A stretch of DNA of 64,000 nucleotides from Candidatus Woesebacteria bacterium (GCA_020061305.1 JAGUYM010000014.1:117920-181919); one strand, 5' to 3'. Positions 9,086 to 58,842 are shown, numbered from the stretch's first letter. Notes: a model not told the origin generated them from the letters alone. Program-made: numbers and translations.

Positions 9086-9114
9086 TTGACCGCAAGCCTC
9101 CTTTACTGTAGAAT
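9086..9114 (+). promoter_or_regulatory. sigma70-like promoter for nusA (TTGACC-17-TAGAAT); predicted transcription start is 1-2 nt before the ATG (leaderless)
   Basis: hexamers at 9086-9091 and 9109-9114; ATG at 9123. Confidence 0.5.
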
Positions 9115-10160: not shown

Positions 10161-10224
10161 AAATTTTATACATAAATTTTAAAATCTTCGCTTTCTAATT
10201 CCTGATTTCTAATTGCTAATTATT

Positions 10225-11598
10225 ATGTTAAAAAATCGTCAACCGATTGTCACAGTTTTGGGCCATGTGGATCATGGAAAAACATCACTTTTGGATGCCA
10301 TTAGACAAACCACGATTGTTTCAAAAGAAGCCGGGGGGATAACTCAGTCAATTGGCGCATCAGTTGTTTCGGGTATTACCTTTATTGATACACCTGGCCA
10401 CGCACTTTTTTCAAGCATGAGGGAAAGGGGTGCTGATATTGCAGACATTGCACTTTTAATAATTGATGGCTCAAGTGGTATCAAGCCCCAAACTTTAGAA
10501 GCTTTAGAACTAATACAAAAAAATGAAGTTCCGTTTATTGTGGTTATTACCAAAAGTGATTTACCTTCAAGTACTATTGAAAATGTGCTCCCGCCTTTAG
10601 AGGAAAAGGGAATTTATTTCGAAGGCAGAGGTGGTCAAACTCCATTTATTGAGGTTTCGGCCAAAAATAAAATTAATCTTGATAAACTTATTGATTTAAT
10701 ACTTTTATTTGCCGAGGTCAATGAAATTAAGGGAGACGAAGATTTACCGTTGGAAGCCTATGTTATTGAAACTACAAAGGAAAAAGGTGGAATTTATACA
10801 TCTTTAGTTGTTAAAAATGGAAAACTTAAAATTGGAGACGATTTGTATACCAAAAATACAAAAGGCAGAGTGAGAGGTCTTTTTGATTTTCAAAATAAGC
10901 CAGTCAAAGAGGTGTCGCCGGGTTTTCCAGCAAGAGTTTTGGGTTTTGATGAAACGCCTTTGGTTGGATGCGTGGTTTCTGATAAACCATGTGATATAGA
11001 AAAACCTGTAAATAAAAAAACATTTATAAGGCATGATAAAACTAAAATCCCTCTTCTGATAAAAGCCAATAATCAAGGAGCCTTGGATGTTTTAAAAGCA
11101 TCAATTCCTAATGGGTTTATTGTCGTTGATTCTGGAATTGGTGAAGTTGTGGAATCAGATGTTTTAAATGCAAAAGCAAATGAGGCATATCTTTTTGTTT
11201 TTGAAAGCAAGATTTCTTCAAACATAAAAAAATTAGCAGATAGCGAAGGAGTTCATGTCGAAAAATTTGATGTTATTTACGAACTTTTAGAGAAGCTTGA
11301 AAAAATATTAAAAGATGATGTTTTTGAAATAAAAGGAAAGGCTCAAATATTAGCAGAATTTCCATTTGATGGCAAAAAGATTGCGGGTGTTAGAGTGACA
11401 ATGGGAAGAATTGAAAAAACATTAAATTTGAAGATATTAAGAGGGGAAAATGAAATAGGTCAAGCCAAGGCGGTTTCAATTAAAAAACAAAAACAAGAAG
11501 TTCAAGGGGTTTCGCAAGGTGAAGAATGTGGAATACTTTTAAATAAAGAGCTTGATTTTAAAATTGGAGATGTTATTATAGCCGTAAATGAAAAATAG
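10225..11598 (+). CDS. infB: translation initiation factor IF-2, short form lacking the N-terminal domains
   Basis: G domain [30 protein letters not shown]; the ATG at 10225 is preferred over the TTG at 10213 used by the ORF track. Confidence 0.9.
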   Translation: MLKNRQPIVTVLGHVDHGKTSLLDAIRQTTIVSKEAGGITQSIGASVVSGITFIDTPGHALFSSMRERGADIADIALLIIDGSSGIKPQTLEALELIQKNEVPFIVVITKSDLPSSTIENVLPPLEEKGIYFEGRGGQTPFIEVSAKNKINLDKLIDLILLFAEVNEIKGDEDLPLEAYVIETTKEKGGIYTSLVVKNGKLKIGDDLYTKNTKGRVRGLFDFQNKPVKEVSPGFPARVLGFDETPLVGCVVSDKPCDIEKPVNKKTFIRHDKTKIPLLIKANNQGALDVLKASIPNGFIVVDSGIGEVVESDVLNAKANEAYLFVFESKISSNIKKLADSEGVHVEKFDVIYELLEKLEKILKDDVFEIKGKAQILAEFPFDGKKIAGVRVTMGRIEKTLNLKILRGENEIGQAKAVSIKKQKQEVQGVSQGEECGILLNKELDFKIGDVIIAVNEK

Positions 11599-12595: not shown

Positions 12596-12624
12596 TTGTA
12601 AATTTTGAACTTGCCTGATATAAT
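12596..12624 (+). promoter_or_regulatory. sigma70-like promoter for rpsO (TTGTAA-17-TATAAT)
   Basis: hexamers at 12596-12601 and 12619-12624. Confidence 0.45.
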
Positions 12625-12950: not shown

Positions 12951-13027
12951 AAAATTAACCTAATTATTCTAATTAACCTAATTGACCAAATAAGCTTCAA
13001 ATAGGACAGAATAATTAAATATACAAA

Positions 13028-16535: not shown

Positions 16536-16994
16536 ATGAAGATAGTTGTTATTGGCGATACACATGATAATATCCAAAACATTAGACATGTGATGGGGTT
16601 TTCAGAAAAAATTAAGGCAGAGGCGGTAATTCATACTGGAGATTGGAGTAATTTAAAAACATACAAAGAAATTAAAAGTTACAAAATTAAAACATATGGA
16701 GTGTTAGGTAATGCAGACATTTCGTCTGAGATAAAAAGTAAACTCGATGAGTTTTTGGAACTAGAAATAGATAATTTAAAAATTGGCCTGATTCATAATA
16801 TTAAAAAATTAAAATTGATTGAAAATTGGAAATTTAAAATTGAAAATTTGGACATAGTTTTTTGCGGCCATGAGCACAAACAATACCAAAAAAATAAATT
16901 TATTAATCCAGGAAGCCTCGAGAATGATATTAATTTTGCAATTTTCGATACAAAAACAAAAAGAGTAGAATTCATCAACAATGACAAAATTTGA
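16536..16994 (+). CDS. small calcineurin-like metallophosphoesterase (YfcE/MJ0936 family)
   Basis: IGDTHDN, GDW, GNAD, GHEH metal-binding motifs in a 152-aa protein. Confidence 0.7.
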   Translation: MKIVVIGDTHDNIQNIRHVMGFSEKIKAEAVIHTGDWSNLKTYKEIKSYKIKTYGVLGNADISSEIKSKLDEFLELEIDNLKIGLIHNIKKLKLIENWKFKIENLDIVFCGHEHKQYQKNKFINPGSLENDINFAIFDTKTKRVEFINNDKI

Positions 16995-17541: not shown

Positions 17542-17643
17542 TCATTTCATGTTAAAATTAACTTAATTATTCTAATCAAGTTAATTGTTCTAAATTAGAC
17601 ATTAAGAATTAGAGCTTGGTTGGAAATTAGAAATTAGAAATTT

Positions 17644-19290
17644 ATGTTACGCTTCATAGCTCTTTCAGGAACAATTGGTGTTACCGAGAACTTAAATGTT
17701 TATGAAACAGAAAAAGATTTAATTCTTTTAGACTGCGGTATAGGCTTCCCCGATTTGGAAATGCCCGGGGTTGATCTTGTTATTCCCGATTTTTCATATG
17801 TGGTTAAAAATAAACACAAGCTAAAAGCTATTGTACTTTCTCAAGGTCATGAAGATCATATAGGCTCTTTACCGTTTTTATTTAGGAGTGTTAATGCTCC
17901 CATTTACTGTGCGCCGTTGGTTTCTGAATTTGTAAAACTTAAATTTGATGATTACGGAGTTAAAAATTATACAATAAATGTTTTTAATCCTGAAAACACT
18001 GTGGTCAAAATTGGAGACTTTGCGTTTTATCCCTTTAGAGTCGCCCATTCTGTTCCTGATACCTGTGGATTTTTAGTTGAACACCCGGAAGGTAGATTTA
18101 TGCATGTTCCTGAACACAAAATTGATCAAAAATCAGTTGATGGCATGCCATTTGATTTGATTCGAGCAAGAGAACTTGCCAAAAGAGGTAAAATTGACTG
18201 CCTTATTTCTGATTGCTTGGGAGCAAATAATCCAGGGTTTGCACCAGATTCAGTGGCAATTGAGGAAAATATTTATAAAATTGCCAAGGATGCAAAACAG
18301 GCGATTTACATGACAGCTATGTCATCAGCAATTGGTAGGTTTCAACAAATGATAAATGTTGCGGGTAGGTTAAATAGAAAAGTTGTTTTAATTGGAAGGT
18401 CTATTCAGGAAAAAGTTAATGCTGCACATCTTCTTGGATATATCAAATTTTTACCAAACCAAGTAATTGATTATAAAAAAGCAAGCAAAATGTCTCCGAG
18501 CCATTTAGTTTATATTGTTGCGGGTTGTTATGGTCAGGTAGGAAGTTCTGTTTATAGGATTGCAACGGATGTAGATAATAGATTAACTGTTGTTGAGGGT
18601 GATACATTTGTTTTTTCAGCAAACCCCGCGCCCCCCTATAGTAAAGAAAGTCAGGATTTTGTAATAGATGAATTAGTAGATAAAGGTGTTGATGTTCATT
18701 ACTACGATTTAAACGAAGGGCTTCATGTTTCGGGTCATGGTTACAAAGAAGACATAAAAATGCTTTTTGACATTGCAAAACCCTCATGTTTTATTCCTAC
18801 GGGAGGAACTATAAAACATATGCATTCATATGAAAAATTAGTAATTGAAACTGGGAGGAAAAAAGATCAAGTTTTCAAACTAAAACCAGGTGAATCTGTT
18901 GAATTTACAAATGGTAAAGCAAGAAGGGGTCAAAAGGTAAGGGTTAAAGAAGTAATGGTTCATGGTCTTGGCATTGGAGATATAGGGAAAACTGTATTAG
19001 AACATAGAACTTTACTTGGCAAAGAAGGAATGGTTGTTGTTGCTATCAAGGCGTCAAAAAAAGGAAGGGTTTTGTCAAAACCACAAATTGTTACAAGGGG
19101 ATTTGTTTTTGAGGGAATTTCAAGCGGTCTTTTGAATGATGCGGTTCAAAGACTTTCCAAATATTTAAATACTTTAAGAAATACAGATTCCAAAAAATTA
19201 AAACAAGAGACCATAAAATATCTGGAGGCCCATTTTTATCAAACTACTGGTCGCTCTCCAATGATAATCCCGATTGTGGTTGAAGTATAG
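17644..19290 (+). CDS. rnj: ribonuclease J (metallo-beta-lactamase/beta-CASP)
   Basis: LLDCGIGFPD, SQGHEDHIGSLPF motifs, beta-CASP and C-terminal domain. Confidence 0.85.
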   Translation: MLRFIALSGTIGVTENLNVYETEKDLILLDCGIGFPDLEMPGVDLVIPDFSYVVKNKHKLKAIVLSQGHEDHIGSLPFLFRSVNAPIYCAPLVSEFVKLKFDDYGVKNYTINVFNPENTVVKIGDFAFYPFRVAHSVPDTCGFLVEHPEGRFMHVPEHKIDQKSVDGMPFDLIRARELAKRGKIDCLISDCLGANNPGFAPDSVAIEENIYKIAKDAKQAIYMTAMSSAIGRFQQMINVAGRLNRKVVLIGRSIQEKVNAAHLLGYIKFLPNQVIDYKKASKMSPSHLVYIVAGCYGQVGSSVYRIATDVDNRLTVVEGDTFVFSANPAPPYSKESQDFVIDELVDKGVDVHYYDLNEGLHVSGHGYKEDIKMLFDIAKPSCFIPTGGTIKHMHSYEKLVIETGRKKDQVFKLKPGESVEFTNGKARRGQKVRVKEVMVHGLGIGDIGKTVLEHRTLLGKEGMVVVAIKASKKGRVLSKPQIVTRGFVFEGISSGLLNDAVQRLSKYLNTLRNTDSKKLKQETIKYLEAHFYQTTGRSPMIIPIVVEV

Positions 19291-27065: not shown

Positions 27066-27092
27066 TTGACTACGCATTTTTCATGGTATAAT
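27066..27092 (+). promoter_or_regulatory. promoter TTGACT-15-TGgTATAAT (extended -10) directly upstream of the zinc-ribbon ORF; predicted leaderless transcript
   Basis: hexamers at 27066-27071 and 27087-27092; ATG at 27101. Confidence 0.5.
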
Positions 27093-27100
27093 TTACTAAG

Positions 27101-27301
27101 ATGTTTAAAAATGTGATAGCACCCATACAAGCATGGCTTTTGTCGCAGGGCAAATGTGTGGGTTGTGGCATGCCCCTTTCCAAAGCTAAATCTACCCCAT
27201 ATAAGGGTAATAACAAGATGGTTACTTGTAAATGTAATCGTATGTATGTATTAGACACCAAGGCCAATAAATACAGAAGAGCGCTTTTGAGTGAGATATG
27301 A
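27101..27301 (+). CDS. small zinc-ribbon protein (CxxC...CxC)
   Basis: 66 aa with CVGCG ... CKC; strong promoter immediately upstream; the overlapping minus-strand ORF has no features. Confidence 0.4.
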   Translation: MFKNVIAPIQAWLLSQGKCVGCGMPLSKAKSTPYKGNNKMVTCKCNRMYVLDTKANKYRRALLSEI

Positions 27302-27347
27302 TCTCACAAATCCTAATTCCTAATCAGATTCTAATAAACAATTATCA

Positions 27348-28262
27348 ATGAAAAAAGTTTTGTTAACTTTAATTATTTTTATAATACTGGTATCTATTGG
27401 AGTTTTTTTTATCAAGTTTCAAATGTCTCCAGTTTCAAGCGATAATTTGGTACAGGAGTTTTTAATAACTAAGGGTTCAAGCGTGGCTAAAATTGGTAAA
27501 GATTTAAAAAAGGCGGGTTTAATTAAAAATGACATTGTCTTTAAGTTTTATGTTCAGGCTACAAATTCTCAGACCAAAATTCAGGCGGGTGAATATGAAC
27601 TTTCAAAAAACTTAAGTTTAAATCAAATTGTAGAAATTTTAAAAAAGGGTCCAAAAGAAATTTGGGTAACAATTCCGGAGGGAATGAGGAGGGAGGAAAT
27701 AGCTTTAAAATTTGCATCAAGCTTAGATAAAGATGAAACTTTTGTAAAAGAATTTTTGAAATTAACAGAAGATAAAGAAGGTTATTTATTTCCTGATACA
27801 TATCTTTTCCCAAAAACTGCTTCAGCTTCAAGTATAGTTAAAAAAATGACAGGACTTTTTGATATAAAATTTAAAGATGTAAGTTACAAAGAACTAATTA
27901 TAGCTTCTCTTTTAGAGAGAGAAACATTAACCGATGAAGAAAAGCCTGTTGTTGCAGGAATTCTTTATAAAAGGCTTGAAAATGACTGGCCATTGCAAGT
28001 TGATGCAACCCTTCAGTATATAAAGGGCGATTGGAAACCAGTTTTCCCACAAGATAAAGAATTAAAATCTCCATATAACACTTATAAAAATCTTGGCCTT
28101 CCACCCAGACCAATTTCAAATCCCGGAAGTTCATCAATCAATGCTTCCCAAAATCCTGAAATTTCAGATTATTGGTTTTATATTCATGATACAAAGGGAG
28201 TTATTCATTATGCCAAAACAATCGAAGAACATAATCTTAATATTAGAAGATACTTGAATTAA
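27348..28262 (+). CDS. mltG: endolytic murein transglycosylase MltG (YceG-like)
   Basis: N-terminal TM, LysM-like region, YceG core with catalytic-region motif LQVDATLQY. Confidence 0.75.
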   Translation: MKKVLLTLIIFIILVSIGVFFIKFQMSPVSSDNLVQEFLITKGSSVAKIGKDLKKAGLIKNDIVFKFYVQATNSQTKIQAGEYELSKNLSLNQIVEILKKGPKEIWVTIPEGMRREEIALKFASSLDKDETFVKEFLKLTEDKEGYLFPDTYLFPKTASASSIVKKMTGLFDIKFKDVSYKELIIASLLERETLTDEEKPVVAGILYKRLENDWPLQVDATLQYIKGDWKPVFPQDKELKSPYNTYKNLGLPPRPISNPGSSSINASQNPEISDYWFYIHDTKGVIHYAKTIEEHNLNIRRYLN

Positions 28263-28300: not shown

Positions 28301-28363
28301 CCAGTTTAGGCCTACGATTGTAGGCTCTCCCGTTTTCGGGACTTTTATTTTATCTAAAAATTA

Positions 28364-37040: not shown

Positions 37041-37271
37041 GGTTAGATTGTAACATAAGTTTCAAGCCTTGAATTCTTCAGAGAAAGAGTAGTATACGAC
37101 TTATTAAGGAACAAGAAAAAGTTTTTGATGAAGACCTTCTTATTGAAAATTACAAAAAATAATCCCATTGAGTCTTGATTAATTTCTTGTTAAAATCATA
37201 TTTACTCCATGTTTTTTGGAGTGTTGTTTTGGACTAGTTCCTAACTCCTAGTTTCTAATTACTATTTTTGT

Positions 37272-39440
37272 ATGGCCGAGGAAAAAGCAAAAAAGTCCAG
37301 TATGGTTATGACGGTTACTAAAGACCGTCAAGTTCCTTTGGATAAAATTAGAAACATCGGGATTATTGCCCACATTGATGCAGGAAAAACTACAACAACA
37401 GAAAGACTTCTTTATGAAACAGGAAGAACTTATAAATTAGGATCAGTCGATGATGGGACAACAGTTACTGACTGGATGGCACAGGAAAGAGAAAGAGGCA
37501 TAACAATAGTTTCAGCCGCAATTACCGCTTTTTGGGAATTAAAGGAAACCAGTTCCGTAGAGAATGGAAAATATAGAATTAATTTAATAGACACTCCTGG
37601 TCATATTGATTTTACTGCAGAAGTTGAAAGATCTCTTAGGGTTCTTGACGGAGCTTTGATGGTTTTTGACGGTAGAACTGGAGTTGAAAGCCAATCTGAA
37701 ACGGTTTGGAGACAGGCTGATAAATATGATGTTCCAAGAATTTGTGTTTTAAATAAACTTAATTTAATTGGGGCTGATTTTGAAGCTTCAATAAAATCAA
37801 TTAGAGAAAGATTGGGTGCAAATGCCTCACCTGTAACTTACCCAATTGGATTGGAACATGCACATCGTGGAGTAGTTGATTTAATATCTATGAAGGCCTT
37901 AACCTATAAAGCAATTGAAGATCATGCATTAACTGAAGAAGAAATCCCTGCAGACCTACTTGAAATTGTTAAAAAATATAGACAAGAACTTATCGAAAAA
38001 GTTTCCGAATTTGATGATAAAGCACTTGAGTATTACATGGAAGGAAAAGAACCAGATGAAATTACTTTAAAAAGAGCAATTAGAAAAGGTGTTATAAGTG
38101 GCAAGTTTTTCCCAGTATTTGGTGGAGATAACAGAACTGCAGAAAGCCAACTTTTATTAGATGGAGTTGTTGAATATTTACCATCTCCTACTGATTTGGT
38201 AGCAGTAACAGGAACAAACCCCAAAACTGGAGAGGTAGTTAAAAGAGAAAGAAAAAATGAGGAAGTTTTTTCAGGTCTTGCCTTTAAAGTCGTGACCGAT
38301 CCACATGTGGGAAGGCTTGTTTATGTCAGGGTTTATTCGGGGACACTAAAAACAGGTCAAACAGTATTAAACACCACAAAACAAATTCAAGAAAGAATTG
38401 GAAAATTGGTTCTTCTTCATGCTGACCAAAGAGAACTTATAGAAGAAGCATTTGCTGGTGAAATCGTTGCAGTAGTCGGGGTTAAAGACACTTCAACGGG
38501 TCACACTATTTGCGATCCATCTCAGCCGATTTATCTCGAGTCGATATCTTTCCCTGAACCAGTTATTTCCCTTGCTATTGAACCTGCAACAAAATCAGAT
38601 CAGGAAAAAATGGGAATTGCATTAAATAAACTTTCTGATGAAGACCCCACATTTAGAATCAAAACAAATCAGGAAACCGGCCAGACAATTATTGCAGGTA
38701 TGGGGGAACTTCAGTTGGAGGTTTTGGTTGATAGAATGAAAAGAGAATTTAATGTGGTCGCGACCACAGGTGCACCTCAAGTTGCCTACAAAGAAACTAT
38801 TAAAAAATATGCAGAGGGTGAGGGTAAATACATTAGGCAAACTGGGGGTAGAGGTCAATATGGGCACTGTTTCATCAAAGTTGAGCCAAAAGGTAGAGGT
38901 GAAGGATTTGAGTTTGTTAATCAAATTAAAGGTGGAGCAATTCCGGCAGAATATATTCCTGCAATTGAAAAAGGTGTTAAGGAAAAACTTGAAAATGGAA
39001 TCATGGCAGGATTTCCACTAGTTGATGTTAAGGTGATCGTTTATGATGGAACCTATCACGATGTAGATTCTTCTGAAATGGCCTTTAAGATTGCGGGATC
39101 GATGGGGGTTGAGGATGCTGTCAGAAAAGCTGACATGGTTCTTCTGGAACCTATTATGAAGGTTGAGGTTTTTACACCTGCAGAATATATGGGTGATGTT
39201 ATGGGAGACCTTTCTAGTAAAAGAGGGCAGATTTCAGGGAGTGAAGAAAAGGCAGGAGAAACAGTTATCTATGGGATGGCACCTTTAGCTGAACTTTCAG
39301 GTTATGCAACTAAATTGAGATCTCTTACACAAGGAAGGGCAAGAGCATTCATAGAACCTTCCCATTATGAAGAGGTTCCAGCTCATATTGCAGCTCAAAT
39401 TGTAGCTAAATCCGGCAAGGTCGAAATGCCTCGTGGCTAA
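37272..39440 (+). CDS. fusA: elongation factor G
   Basis: AHIDAGKTTTTERLL, DTPGHIDF, NKLN G-domain motifs; domains II-V. Confidence 0.95.
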   Translation: MAEEKAKKSSMVMTVTKDRQVPLDKIRNIGIIAHIDAGKTTTTERLLYETGRTYKLGSVDDGTTVTDWMAQERERGITIVSAAITAFWELKETSSVENGKYRINLIDTPGHIDFTAEVERSLRVLDGALMVFDGRTGVESQSETVWRQADKYDVPRICVLNKLNLIGADFEASIKSIRERLGANASPVTYPIGLEHAHRGVVDLISMKALTYKAIEDHALTEEEIPADLLEIVKKYRQELIEKVSEFDDKALEYYMEGKEPDEITLKRAIRKGVISGKFFPVFGGDNRTAESQLLLDGVVEYLPSPTDLVAVTGTNPKTGEVVKRERKNEEVFSGLAFKVVTDPHVGRLVYVRVYSGTLKTGQTVLNTTKQIQERIGKLVLLHADQRELIEEAFAGEIVAVVGVKDTSTGHTICDPSQPIYLESISFPEPVISLAIEPATKSDQEKMGIALNKLSDEDPTFRIKTNQETGQTIIAGMGELQLEVLVDRMKREFNVVATTGAPQVAYKETIKKYAEGEGKYIRQTGGRGQYGHCFIKVEPKGRGEGFEFVNQIKGGAIPAEYIPAIEKGVKEKLENGIMAGFPLVDVKVIVYDGTYHDVDSSEMAFKIAGSMGVEDAVRKADMVLLEPIMKVEVFTPAEYMGDVMGDLSSKRGQISGSEEKAGETVIYGMAPLAELSGYATKLRSLTQGRARAFIEPSHYEEVPAHIAAQIVAKSGKVEMPRG

Positions 39441-39549
39441 CACCAAATTTCAAATTTATAATGAAAATTATCAACTAATTGATAATTAAATATTAAATAA
39501 ATGAAAATTTATTGAAAATTGTAAATTAGATTTAACCTTATTTTAGGTG

Positions 39550-39579
39550 TTGACACTTTTTGTTGGTGTCATTTATAAT
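39550..39579 (+). promoter_or_regulatory. sigma70-like promoter for tuf (TTGACA-18-TATAAT), followed by a terminator-like hairpin (39590-39618)
   Basis: hexamers at 39550-39555 and 39574-39579; GAGGCA-ATAGAGA-TGCCTC + TTGTTTTTTG. Confidence 0.6.
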
Positions 39580-39646
39580 ACCTTTGCTTGAGGCAATAGA
39601 GATGCCTCTTGTTTTTTGAAAGATTTGAAAATATAATAATAAAACT

Positions 39647-41229: not shown

Positions 41230-41300
41230 TCTATTCTATAGAAACATGGAGGTGGTTATACTAGTCTAAACCTTGGAGTTCCTTAGGCTTAAAGGATTAA

Positions 41301-41323
41301 AGACGCCTTCGGCGTTTTTTTTT
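41301..41323 (+). terminator. intrinsic terminator (GC stem with a UUC(G)-type loop + 9 U) ~25 nt upstream of rplC
   Basis: AGACGCC-TTC-GGCGT followed by TTTTTTTTT (41315-41323). Confidence 0.6.
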
Positions 41324-56986: not shown

Positions 56987-57010
56987 TTTCTAATCGTTTT
57001 AGTTGATTTA

Positions 57011-57678: not shown

Positions 57679-58842
57679 ATGGTAACGAATAACGATTATA
57701 TTAAAAAATTAGAGCAGGTTTCTAAAATGACTGCTGATGAGGCCAAAAAAGCACTTCTTGAGGAGGTCCAAAAGGGATTAACTTCAGAAATTGCTAAAAG
57801 AATAAGACAAGCTGAAGAAAAGATAAAACTTGAAGCCCACGAAAAATCGAAAGAAATCTTAGCAGATAGTCTAAAACATGGTGTTACTTCATTTGTTGCA
57901 GAGTATACAGTTTCTTCAATCACAGTTCCAAACGAAGAAGTAAAGGGAAGGATAATTGGTGCTGAAGGAAGAAATATTAGAGCTTTTGAAAAAGAAGCAG
58001 GAGTGGAGATTTTAATTGATGAAACAAATGAAATTAGGATATCAAGTTTTGATGCAGTCAGGCGCGAAATTGCCAAGAGAGCACTAGAAATTTTGATAAA
58101 AGACTCAAGAATTCAACCTTCAAGAATTGAAGAAGTCTTAAAACAGGTCAAGATAAATATGGAAGACGTACTATTGGAGGAAGGTAAGAAGGTTGCAGAG
58201 GAGTGTGGCGTTTATAATCTTCCTGTAGATTTGGTCAAATTAATTGGAAAGTTTAAATTCAGAACTTCTTATGGTCAAAACTTAGGACATCACACGATTG
58301 AAGAAACCAAAATCGGTGTTGCAATTGCTAACGAAATCGGAGCAAAAGTAGACACTGTTCGTTTAGGATGCTTGCTTCACGATATTGGAAAAGTTGTAAC
58401 TGACGAAGAAGGAAATCATGTGGATGTTGGAGTAGCAACACTTAAGAAATTCGGCATGCCGAAAGAGGTAATTGCTGTTGTCGCCGAACATCATGAAGAT
58501 AAGCCATTTTCTTCAATTGAAAGTTATGTCGTTTGGATTGCAGATGCGGCATCTGGTTCAAGGCCTGGTGCAAGGTATGAACCACACGAAGGTTATGTTA
58601 AAAGAATGGAAAAAATCGAGAATATTGCCAAAAGTTTCGAAGGTGTTGAACAGGCATTTGCATTCCAAGCAGGTCGTGATGTAAGAGTTTTTGTTAATCC
58701 TAAAGAAATTGACGATGATGGATTAACTGTTTTGGTTCATGATTTGGTCGGAAAACTTGAAAAAGAGGCTGAATACGCAGGCCAAGTAAAGGTTACGGCT
58801 GTTCGAGAAGTTAAGGTGGTTGACACAACTAAAGCCAAATAG
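57679..58842 (+). CDS. rny: ribonuclease Y (coiled-coil + KH + HD), lacking the usual N-terminal transmembrane anchor
   Basis: KH GRIIGAEGRNIRAFE; HD motif LGCLLHDIGK; no hydrophobic N-terminus. Confidence 0.85.
   Translation: MVTNNDYIKKLEQVSKMTADEAKKALLEEVQKGLTSEIAKRIRQAEEKIKLEAHEKSKEILADSLKHGVTSFVAEYTVSSITVPNEEVKGRIIGAEGRNIRAFEKEAGVEILIDETNEIRISSFDAVRREIAKRALEILIKDSRIQPSRIEEVLKQVKINMEDVLLEEGKKVAEECGVYNLPVDLVKLIGKFKFRTSYGQNLGHHTIEETKIGVAIANEIGAKVDTVRLGCLLHDIGKVVTDEEGNHVDVGVATLKKFGMPKEVIAVVAEHHEDKPFSSIESYVVWIADAASGSRPGARYEPHEGYVKRMEKIENIAKSFEGVEQAFAFQAGRDVRVFVNPKEIDDDGLTVLVHDLVGKLEKEAEYAGQVKVTAVREVKVVDTTKAK

Follow-up and report, generated by a model that had tools for sequence, protein, structure and literature searches.

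The leaders and intercistronic spacers of several housekeeping genes in a 64,000-nucleotide (nt) stretch of a Candidatus Woesebacteria genome (GCA_020061305.1, JAGUYM010000014.1:117920-181919; hereafter the window) carry head-to-tail direct repeats of the heptamer CTAATTN, in three to five copies. These arrays are a genuine, selected, and lineage-specific leader element, and they probably act on the start of translation. The explanation we favor, tentatively, is that they are phased binding sites for a single-strand RNA-binding protein controlling initiation that is independent of a Shine-Dalgarno (SD) sequence. We infer that they work at the RNA level and are read by a protein, which would either raise or lower translation. 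The study covered 74 kb of the genome, the window plus an adjoining 9.8 kb; none of the 12 further leaders in the adjoining DNA has an array.

The repeat unit and the arrays

A preliminary description of the window had reported a recurring CTAATT motif upstream of start codons. The recurrence is real, but the unit is the heptamer CTAATTN in direct repeat, and not all of the sites listed there hold. The exact CTAATT copies given for infB (10195, 10209, and 10216) and pnp (12960, 12969, and 12978) were confirmed. Array coordinates refer to the plus strand. The infB array fills part of the nusA-infB spacer (10195 to 10222) with four contiguous heptads, CTAATTC CTGATTT CTAATTG CTAATTA, followed by TT and the ATG at 10225, a gap of 2 nt. 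Five contiguous heptads, CTAGTTC CTAACTC CTAGTTT CTAATTA CTATTTT, make up the fusA array (37234 to 37268), with TGT between them and the ATG at 37272 (3 nt). Only one of the copies reported before fusA is exact (37255); the others, CTAGTT, CTAACT, CTAGTT, and CTATTT, keep the same 7-nt register. The mltG array (27313 to 27337) consists of two heptads, a 4-nt gap, and one more heptad, CTAATTC CTAATCA (GATT) CTAATAA, ending 10 nt before the ATG at 27348, and is part of a 46-nt insertion between a small zinc-ribbon open reading frame (ORF) and mltG. Here the copy at 27313 is exact, and those at 27320 and 27331 read CTAATC and CTAATA. Over the 12 heptads, the consensus is C in 12, T in 12, A in 11, A in 9, T in 11, and T in 10, followed by any base, and each array contains only one or two G residues.

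Two further leaders carry variants. In the rpsO-pnp spacer, AATTAAC is followed by the 9-nt units CTAATTATT CTAATTAAC CTAATTGAC (12960 to 12986; whole array, 12953 to 12986), with 41 nt remaining to the ATG; Tandem Repeats Finder (TRF) scored this array as period 9 with 4.3 copies. The rnj 5' leader (17563 to 17643), also listed in the preliminary description, has no array on the sense strand. It carries reverse-complement units, with ATTAGA four times (17594, 17608, 17626, and 17633) and a single sense TCTAAT (17571), and ends in GAAATTAGAAATTAGAAATTT just before the ATG at 17644. Read as RNA, it has UAG/UAA triplets at 17596, 17603, and 17610 and again at 17628 and 17635, in each case with 7-nt spacing.

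The arrays are non-random, intergenic, and sense-biased. CTAATT alone is not enriched across the window (90 observed versus 76 +/- 8.5), but the window-wide count is the wrong test, because the purine-rich coding strand contains many AATTAG. Sense-strand YCTAAT occurs at 3.63 per kb in intergenic DNA versus 0.30 per kb in coding DNA, a 12-fold difference, and 11 of the 31 copies fall in 4.7% of the sequence (p = 9e-8). Three clusters of at least three YCTAAT within 40 nt were observed, versus 0.05 in dinucleotide shuffles (maximum, 2), and all sense-strand clusters are intergenic. CTA-N4-CTA was found 6 times in 3 kb of intergenic DNA versus once in 57.6 kb of plus-strand coding sequence. Under a first-order model of intergenic DNA, no frequent hexamers are more over-represented there than TCTAAT, CTAATT, and TTCTAA, barring TATAAT (the -10 box) and AAATTA. 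The preliminary description had named equal motif density in coding or random AT-rich sequence as the result that would undo its claim; the 12-fold intergenic excess and the shuffle test show the opposite.

Conservation in close relatives

We compared the window with 80 PNPase-centered loci from GTDB species (PNPase 49 to 77% identical) and with Logan assembly contigs; related loci are given L numbers. Two relatives are used repeatedly: species B, with a PNPase 81% identical, and species C (L090), with an EF-G 91% identical. Exact YCTAAT clusters are essentially absent from the 80 GTDB loci. Arrays were found only in the closest relatives, reached through the Logan contigs.

Where the leaders are shared, they have changed little. 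The pnp leader of species B is identical at 74 of 78 positions, versus 124 of 277 (45%) at the fourfold-degenerate sites of pnp (p = 2e-17), and the last 53 nt of the species C fusA leader are identical at 51 positions, versus 144 of 291 (49%) at fourfold-degenerate sites (p = 5e-12). Judged by these comparisons, purifying selection on the arrays is strong among the nearest relatives. For fusA, the window and species B agree at 11 of 12 CTA-triplet positions and at 4 of 12 in heptad positions 5 to 7 (p = 0.009), in a single pairwise comparison of the first four heptads, ungapped; the fifth needs one gap. Selection appears to act on the phased triplet and not on the filler. A short recognition element present in repeated copies would be expected to keep CTA while its spacers diverge in this way.

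The set of arrays differs among relatives. Species B keeps the pnp array, has a fusA array and CTAATTaCTAATT just after nusA, the latter ~70 nt upstream of where infB starts, and carries one more CTAAT pair ahead of a Fic gene; it lacks the rnj and mltG arrays. The fusA heptad count is unchanged in species B and C. The fusA array is absent from L092, L094, and L096, and relatives at 87 to 89% EF-G identity keep the fusA promoter and hairpin without the array. In L083 and L084, the small ORF extends over the mltG start, with no array at this junction. Because relatives keep the fusA promoter and hairpin without an array, and because of the overlapping ORF in two species, the arrays are lineage-specific insertions.

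The fusA coding sequence itself may also be constrained. Its first ~70 nt (37272 to 37340) are near-invariant as nucleotide sequence in five species whose fourfold sites are otherwise near saturation, and a hairpin lies at 37309 to 37330. This suggests an RNA-level constraint within the start of the fusA coding region.

Position relative to promoters and Shine-Dalgarno sequences

The best promoter matches lie upstream of the arrays: nusA (9086 to 9114), rpsO (12596 to 12624), and fusA (37168 to 37196). A promoter for the small ORF before mltG, read directly from the sequence, is at ~27066 to 27092 (TTGACT-17-TATAAT). The fusA promoter (TTGAGT-17-TAAAAT with TG), together with a 5'-terminal hairpin and U tract, spans 37168 to 37223, all upstream of the array. 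Three of the arrays are within operons. That the motif is a promoter or UP element, one of the options in the preliminary description, or an alternative-sigma site is very improbable. TCTAAT matches TATAAT at five of six positions and the arrays are AT-rich, but TCTAAT lacks the essential A at position 2, there is no -10 box at a usable distance downstream, and the arrays are downstream of the best sigma-70-type promoters, in leaders without an SD sequence. A -10 box could not fit between the infB or fusA array and its ATG, the gap being 2 to 3 nt. We also dropped a leaderless-promoter reading of the arrays for want of a suitable -10 box: no -10-like hexamer (A2/T6) occurs 4 to 11 nt before the array-bearing ATGs, and nine other genes have one.

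In about nine genes, a -10-like hexamer (TATAAT/TAGAAT/TACAAT; A2, T6) ends 6 to 8 nt before the start (3181, 8076, 9123, 15472, 16536, 22326, and 27101, and on the minus strand 37040 and 2862). On the basis of this spacing, many first cistrons are probably translated from leaderless or near-leaderless mRNAs.

The array-bearing leaders lack a clear SD sequence, as the preliminary description had stated: their duplex energies with ACCUCCUUU are +0.2 to +1.3 kcal/mol (rnj, -3.3), and they show no complementarity to the CCUCC core. The same absence applies to about three-quarters of the 61 genes scored; a recognizable SD sequence is present in about one-quarter and is canonical in dnaK, rpsC, rpsD, and others. 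A motif in place of the SD sequence could act as an alternative ribosome-binding site by pairing with 16S rRNA, either with an altered 3' tail or with AUUAGA of the 790 loop, which is universally conserved and exactly complementary to UCUAAU. Despite this match and the SD-less leaders, we find such pairing scarcely credible. Arrays of the window end 2, 3, 10, or 41 nt before the start, and in species B the distance is ~70 nt; spacing this variable argues that the arrays are not SD substitutes. GGAGG-type SD sequences at normal spacing in dnaK, rpsC, rpsD, and other genes of the window indicate a canonical anti-SD, and most relatives, which share the ribosome, lack the motif. No 16S rRNA gene is present in the window or in ~100 related loci.

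Predicted RNA structure

Units of the pnp and rnj arrays are predicted to take part in hairpins. In the pnp leader, an irregular hairpin of 57 nt (12961 to 13017; -13.5 kcal/mol, z = -2.8) is predicted in which UAAUUAUUCU pairs with AGAAUAAUUA, with inner helices, and the first two units of the array form its 5' arm. As in leaders of the RNase III-processed type, this predicted long irregular hairpin lies between rpsO and pnp, and its sequence is conserved in species B. The predicted rnj hairpin (z = -1.7) pairs the sense TCTAAT at 17571 with GUUGGA through G-U pairs, which makes it specific to the RNA strand; the leader RNA ends in GAAAUUAGAAAUUAGAAAUUU directly before the AUG.

These hairpins bear on the possibility that the arrays are arms of RNA duplexes, either in cis, as segmented AU-rich hairpins for processing or stability, or in trans, through pairing of the infB, mltG, and fusA arrays with the rnj leader. 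The E. coli pnp leader stem is cut by RNase III. Besides the two predicted hairpins, side-by-side purine-type and pyrimidine-type arrays in relatives fold into segmented stems (the L027 truB leader, z = -3.7; the L025 nusA leader, z = -3.1; L022, z = -1.6). The rnj leader is also predicted to pair with the infB array at -23.9 kcal/mol and with the mltG array at -19.1 kcal/mol, compared with -21.1 and -15.2 for the best 60-nt window within +/-1.5 kb. However, the infB, mltG, and fusA leaders fold no better than shuffles (z = +0.27, -0.83, and -0.30), and nothing near their arrays is complementary to them. Complementarity in trans is a trivial consequence of sharing one motif, and species B lacks the rnj array. 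We regard duplex formation as a somewhat unlikely account of the arrays as a whole.

The G-U pairs also weigh on a reading at the DNA level, in which a transcription factor or nucleoid protein would bind the heptads as a duplex operator and block or modulate transcription through the leader. The unit occurs in both orientations (rnj; L022, L027, and L037), its AATT core is self-complementary, and no triplets show stronger 7-nt periodicity in the clade than ATT and AAT. Heptad direct repeats are described as DNA sites elsewhere (10.1101/2021.05.14.444153), and deleting heptamer repeats near promoters changed reporter activity in Nostoc (10.1101/2022.06.06.494920). Against this, the arrays lie downstream of promoters, within operons, and up against the ATG; a 7-bp spacing places successive sites on different helix faces; the sense bias in the window is four to one; and hairpins built from the units hold G-U pairs and so exist only as RNA. 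A DNA operator seems to us improbable.

Three simpler roles were considered and dropped. A structure-free landing pad as the main mechanism did not survive, as predicted accessibility of the arrays is ordinary. The long-range helix GGACU/AGUCC, which would enclose the fusA array, does not recur in species C. Three-frame stop codons as the purpose of the repeats would fit infB and fusA, but only about half of the period-7 units hold a stop, versus ~0.4 expected for AT-rich heptamers (hand estimates).

Other hairpins lie near the arrays. Directly 5' of the mltG array, a hairpin that spans the small-ORF stop codon, GTGAGAT-ATG-ATCTCAC (27291 to 27307, plus strand), shows two compensatory pair changes relative to species C L090 (GCGAAAT/ATTTCGC). 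The ORF itself (27101 to 27301) is conserved, encodes 66 amino acids (aa), is cysteine-rich and zinc-ribbon-like without a Pfam match, and precedes mltG. Terminator-like hairpins with a U tract come right after strong promoters of rpoB (28310 to 28341), fusA (37203 to 37223), tuf (39590 to 39608), and rplC (41299 to 41319), an arrangement kept in the relatives L084, L090, L092, L094, and L096. Such promoter-proximal hairpins may be leader attenuators or 5' stabilizers against RNase J.

Seven-nucleotide periodicity across Microgenomates

To place the arrays in a wider setting, periodicity was scored in the intergenic DNA of the window and 88 non-redundant loci, relative to shuffles. Short tandem repeats are in excess at period 7 (45 versus 11.6), period 8 (25 versus 7.8), and period 9 (13 versus 4.8). 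When the same triplet was required three times at fixed spacing, period 7 was the sole clear excess (263 versus 130); the ratios at periods 8 and 9 were 1.30 and 1.35, and periods 4 to 6 and 11 were at expectation. The main period-7 triplets are ATT (29 versus 2.6), AAT (18 versus 3.3), TTG, GAA, CTA (6 versus 0.17), and CGA.

In other lineages, repeats recur before the same genes. Six CTA-N4 heptads precede infB in the more distant relative L012. Repeats precede pnp in L024, as (TAG-N4)4, and in L051 and L015; rnj in L021 and L064; nusA in L037 and L025; truB in L027; and an AAA ATPase gene in L022, L023, and L003. The units differ between lineages and genes, and both orientations occur. These counts support 7-nt phasing of repeats as a general property of leaders in Microgenomates.

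The same counts feed the view that the arrays are a mutational by-product: heptanucleotide repeats generated by slippage in AT-rich spacers, with no function of their own, in leaders conserved for other constraints. The clade-wide peak at period 7, with 8 and 9 also raised, fits this, as do the variety of units among lineages and genes and the fast turnover implied by insertions relative to more distant relatives. Heptanucleotides are, as summarized in PMC4679880, the most abundant class of 5- to 11-nt repeats in most bacterial genomes and the commonest longer simple repeats in bacteria, possibly through polymerase slippage. Several results count against a by-product. One genome has the same unit in four or five unlinked leaders, and species B and C have it as well; these leaders are 95 to 96% identical versus 45 to 49% at fourfold-degenerate sites; CTA triplets are kept while spacers diverge; and sense-strand arrays are exclusively intergenic and near start codons. 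Copy number is also constant, the mltG array being identical in four other assemblies of the strain, although the five assemblies are 100% identical overall. With imperfect copies, only three to five per array, the repeats do not resemble a phase-variable contingency locus. We consider it unlikely that the arrays are by-products only.

Two related observations concern other repeats. In the distant Microgenomates L025 (1285 to 1355, before nusA) and L060 (13320 to 13410, before UDG), a purine array (AGAGnnn) is followed by a pyrimidine array (CTCTTTTA); this purine-pyrimidine element is a second repeat family, distinct from CTAATT. Within the window, a 7-nt repeat, ATTGAAA ATTGGAA ATTTAAA ATTGAAA ATT (16818 to 16848), lies inside the metallophosphoesterase coding sequence, an odd place for a period that is not a multiple of three.

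A candidate mechanism

The preliminary description had left the motif as a possible regulator site or initiation enhancer. A post-transcriptional cis-element is the version we favor, given the sense bias, the transcribed position, the SD-less leaders, and the purifying selection. The arrays most likely arose by local tandem duplication and would have been retained as cis-acting mRNA elements at or adjoining the translation initiation region. As the likeliest mechanism, we suggest that a single-strand RNA-binding protein occupies the units side by side, each copy covering ~7 nt. An OB fold of the cold-shock-domain or S1 type would suit, and an oligomeric protein that reads triplet repeats in the manner of TRAP or HutP is an alternative. 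Whichever the reader, it would promote or repress SD-independent initiation at internal or long-leader cistrons. Units of the pnp and rnj leaders are also predicted to double as arms of long hairpins. This mechanism fits the other translation signals of the window, where first genes often look leaderless and only about one-quarter of genes have an SD sequence.

Several results weigh against this mechanism. The reader protein is only postulated; there is no csp gene in 1.6 Mb of related loci, an absence that is uninformative because these loci represent just two syntenic regions. Most relatives lack arrays, and whole leaders are conserved rather than the repeats alone, with only the fusA comparison with species B singling out the units. 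The species C mltG junction keeps the same hairpin, followed by a different repeat, ATTTACA. The opposite orientation of the motif in the rnj leader and in many relatives is unexplained by one reader of RNA sequence, and the pnp unit is 9 nt, not 7. The mean unpaired probability of the arrays, 0.33 to 0.62, is like that of other leaders (0.35 to 0.69). Finally, heptanucleotides are the commonest longer repeats for mutational reasons, so a 7-nt period alone does not imply a 7-nt footprint.

A bolder form of the favored explanation, which we think improbable, is an undescribed post-transcriptional system of Microgenomates, in which an oligomeric or cooperative single-strand RNA-binding protein reads (CUA-N4)n-type heptads at the SD-less starts of genes for translation and RNA decay (infB, fusA, pnp, rnj, nusA, and truB). 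Such a system could form a dedicated initiation or feedback circuit for minimal, SD-poor cells that translate partly from leaderless mRNAs, and complementary arrays, for example in the rnj leader, might be built-in antagonists.

Genomic context

The source is an uncultured groundwater bacterium that protein searches assign to Microgenomates/Woesebacteria, within the candidate phyla radiation (CPR). PNPase relatives at 66 to 81% identity are named Microgenomates or Woesebacteria, and the related loci come from metagenome-assembled genomes so named. Many GTDB records titled "uncultured Gammaproteobacteria bacterium" (also Alphaproteobacteria, Nanoarchaeia, and Nevskiaceae) have Microgenomates-type PNPase loci (L003, L008, L012 to L014, and others) and are mislabeled. 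The window is compact, with 30 to 39% GC, nearly all genes on the plus strand, and one tRNA; no Rfam family matches at gathering score anywhere in it. The genes run hrcA-grpE-dnaK-dnaJ, nusA (9123), infB (10225), a truB-like gene, rpsO (12683), and pnp (13028); then an AAA ATPase, rnj (17644), ftsK, alaS, the small zinc-ribbon ORF (27101), and mltG (27348); then rpoB, rpoC, rpsL, rpsG, fusA (37272), tuf (39647), and the S10-spc-alpha ribosomal clusters, followed by recA, recX, RNase Y, and HU.

Isolated copies of the motif lie outside the arrays. A lone TCTAAT(C) is found in the recA-recX spacer (56989 to 56994, plus strand), 16 nt before the recX ATG. The site given for tuf in the preliminary description (39475) does lie in a near-palindrome, TTATCAACTAATTGATAA, but it is a single copy upstream of the tuf promoter and is unrelated to the arrays. 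That near-palindrome, TTATCAA-CTAA-TTGATAA at 39468 to 39485, is in the fusA-tuf spacer (39441 to 39646), which also has three different heptad doublets, CAAATTT at 39444, ATTAAAT at 39485, and ATTGAAA/ATTGTAA at 39511; like the near-palindrome, these precede the tuf promoter. The corresponding spacer of species C holds an inserted PIN-domain gene pair (L090 12211 to 12856).

IF2 (10225 to 11598) is very short, with 457 aa from the ATG at 10225, and begins directly at the GTPase domain. For RNase Y (57679 to 58842; 387 aa), the RNase_Y_N match is confined to the C-terminal portion of that domain. RNase J and PNPase are encoded in the window too, a set for RNA decay of the Gram-positive type.

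Relation to known repeats and significance

The nearest precedent is a set of direct repeats of the heptamer TAACTGA in marine Beggiatoaceae, some cyanobacteria, and Bacteroidetes (MacGregor 2015, PMC4679880). They come in sets of two to six copies, some split by a related heptamer, and are mostly intergenic and forward; the largest class of sets ends 1 nt before the start codon, only ~10% of repeat-bearing spacers have an SD sequence, and sets occur within translation operons, including before fusA, pnp, and ribosomal protein genes (PMC4679880). S1, Csp, and CsrA were proposed as readers without experimental test, and the function is unproven (PMC4679880); CspB is described, in work cited there, as binding heptamer direct repeats with one protein per heptamer. 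The CTAATTN arrays share the head-to-tail 7-nt sets, sometimes split, and the intergenic, forward placement a few nucleotides before the start (infB, 2; fusA, 3; mltG, 10), with pnp at 41 and rnj reversed. They also share SD-less leaders, in a genome with SD sequences in only ~25% of genes, a position before fusA and pnp, and a patchy, strain-specific distribution. They differ in the unit, which is CTAATTN with positions 4 to 7 imperfect; in number, with about five arrays in 74 kb; in phylum (Microgenomates/CPR); and in that complementary orientation and hairpin-forming paired arrays are common in relatives of the window. No tandem TAACTGA was found in the window or the 88 loci. The CTAATTN arrays are the same kind of element as the TAACTGA repeats, not the same family.

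Contiguous heptamer repeats, among them the classical STRR repeats, are known from heterocystous cyanobacteria. In Nostoc PCC 7120, TTTTGAA/TTCAAAA is repeated three to four times near start codons or promoters, and deletions affect reporters, which suggests that the repeats are regulatory (10.1101/2022.06.06.494920). Like CTAATTN, these repeats are AT-rich, in three to four copies, within 100 nt of starts, and in both orientations, and doublets of the Nostoc unit TTCAAAA also occur in a Microgenomates pnp leader (L015). The units are otherwise different, and arrays in cyanobacteria may reach considerable length. The ToxT/H-NS sites of the Vibrio cholerae ctxAB promoter, TTTTGAT heptads, are likewise AT-rich direct repeats and control expression. 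Their place is upstream of the -35 box and their action is at the level of duplex DNA, whereas the arrays here are downstream of promoters.

The arrays also resemble the leaders read by TRAP and HutP in having a short conserved triplet with a variable spacer, repeated 3 to 11 times, with a 7-nt period as for HutP. TRAP sites are (G/U)AG triplets with 2- to 3-nt spacers, and some overlap initiation regions and repress translation; HutP sites are UAG-N4-UAG-N4-UAG. The rnj, L024, and L027 leaders are (UAG-N4)n in form, rnj with UAG/UAA. Unlike these sites, the sense arrays conserve CUA and not NAG, and they are downstream of the terminator-like hairpin instead of overlapping it.

In E. coli, the rpsO-pnp leader hairpin mediates RNase III/PNPase autoregulation. 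The E. coli genes nusA, infB, and pnp are cold-shock genes, for which induction by Csp antitermination was proposed (PMC12562117), a mechanism later questioned in favor of mRNA stabilization and translational bias (PMC6511841). The genes and operon positions are the same as in the window, as is the long irregular pnp leader hairpin, here predicted, and Csp binds single-stranded RNA in ~7-nt units, although any link to Csp in the window would be by analogy. There is no sequence similarity, and the E. coli leaders lack repeats.

Heptamer repeats at start codons were previously reported in giant sulfur bacteria and cyanobacteria, and their function was never established. The same architecture with a different unit before fusA and pnp in a CPR bacterium, together with purifying selection, points to a recurrent solution and not a one-lineage curiosity. 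At 28 to 35 nt, with a defined CTA-N4 register, the elements are compact, testable cases. If the arrays are only tolerated slippage products, the 7-nt intergenic periodicity of Microgenomates would still be a caution for motif discovery. Should there be a reader protein, it would show how cells poor in SD sequences and ribosomes begin translating internal cistrons.

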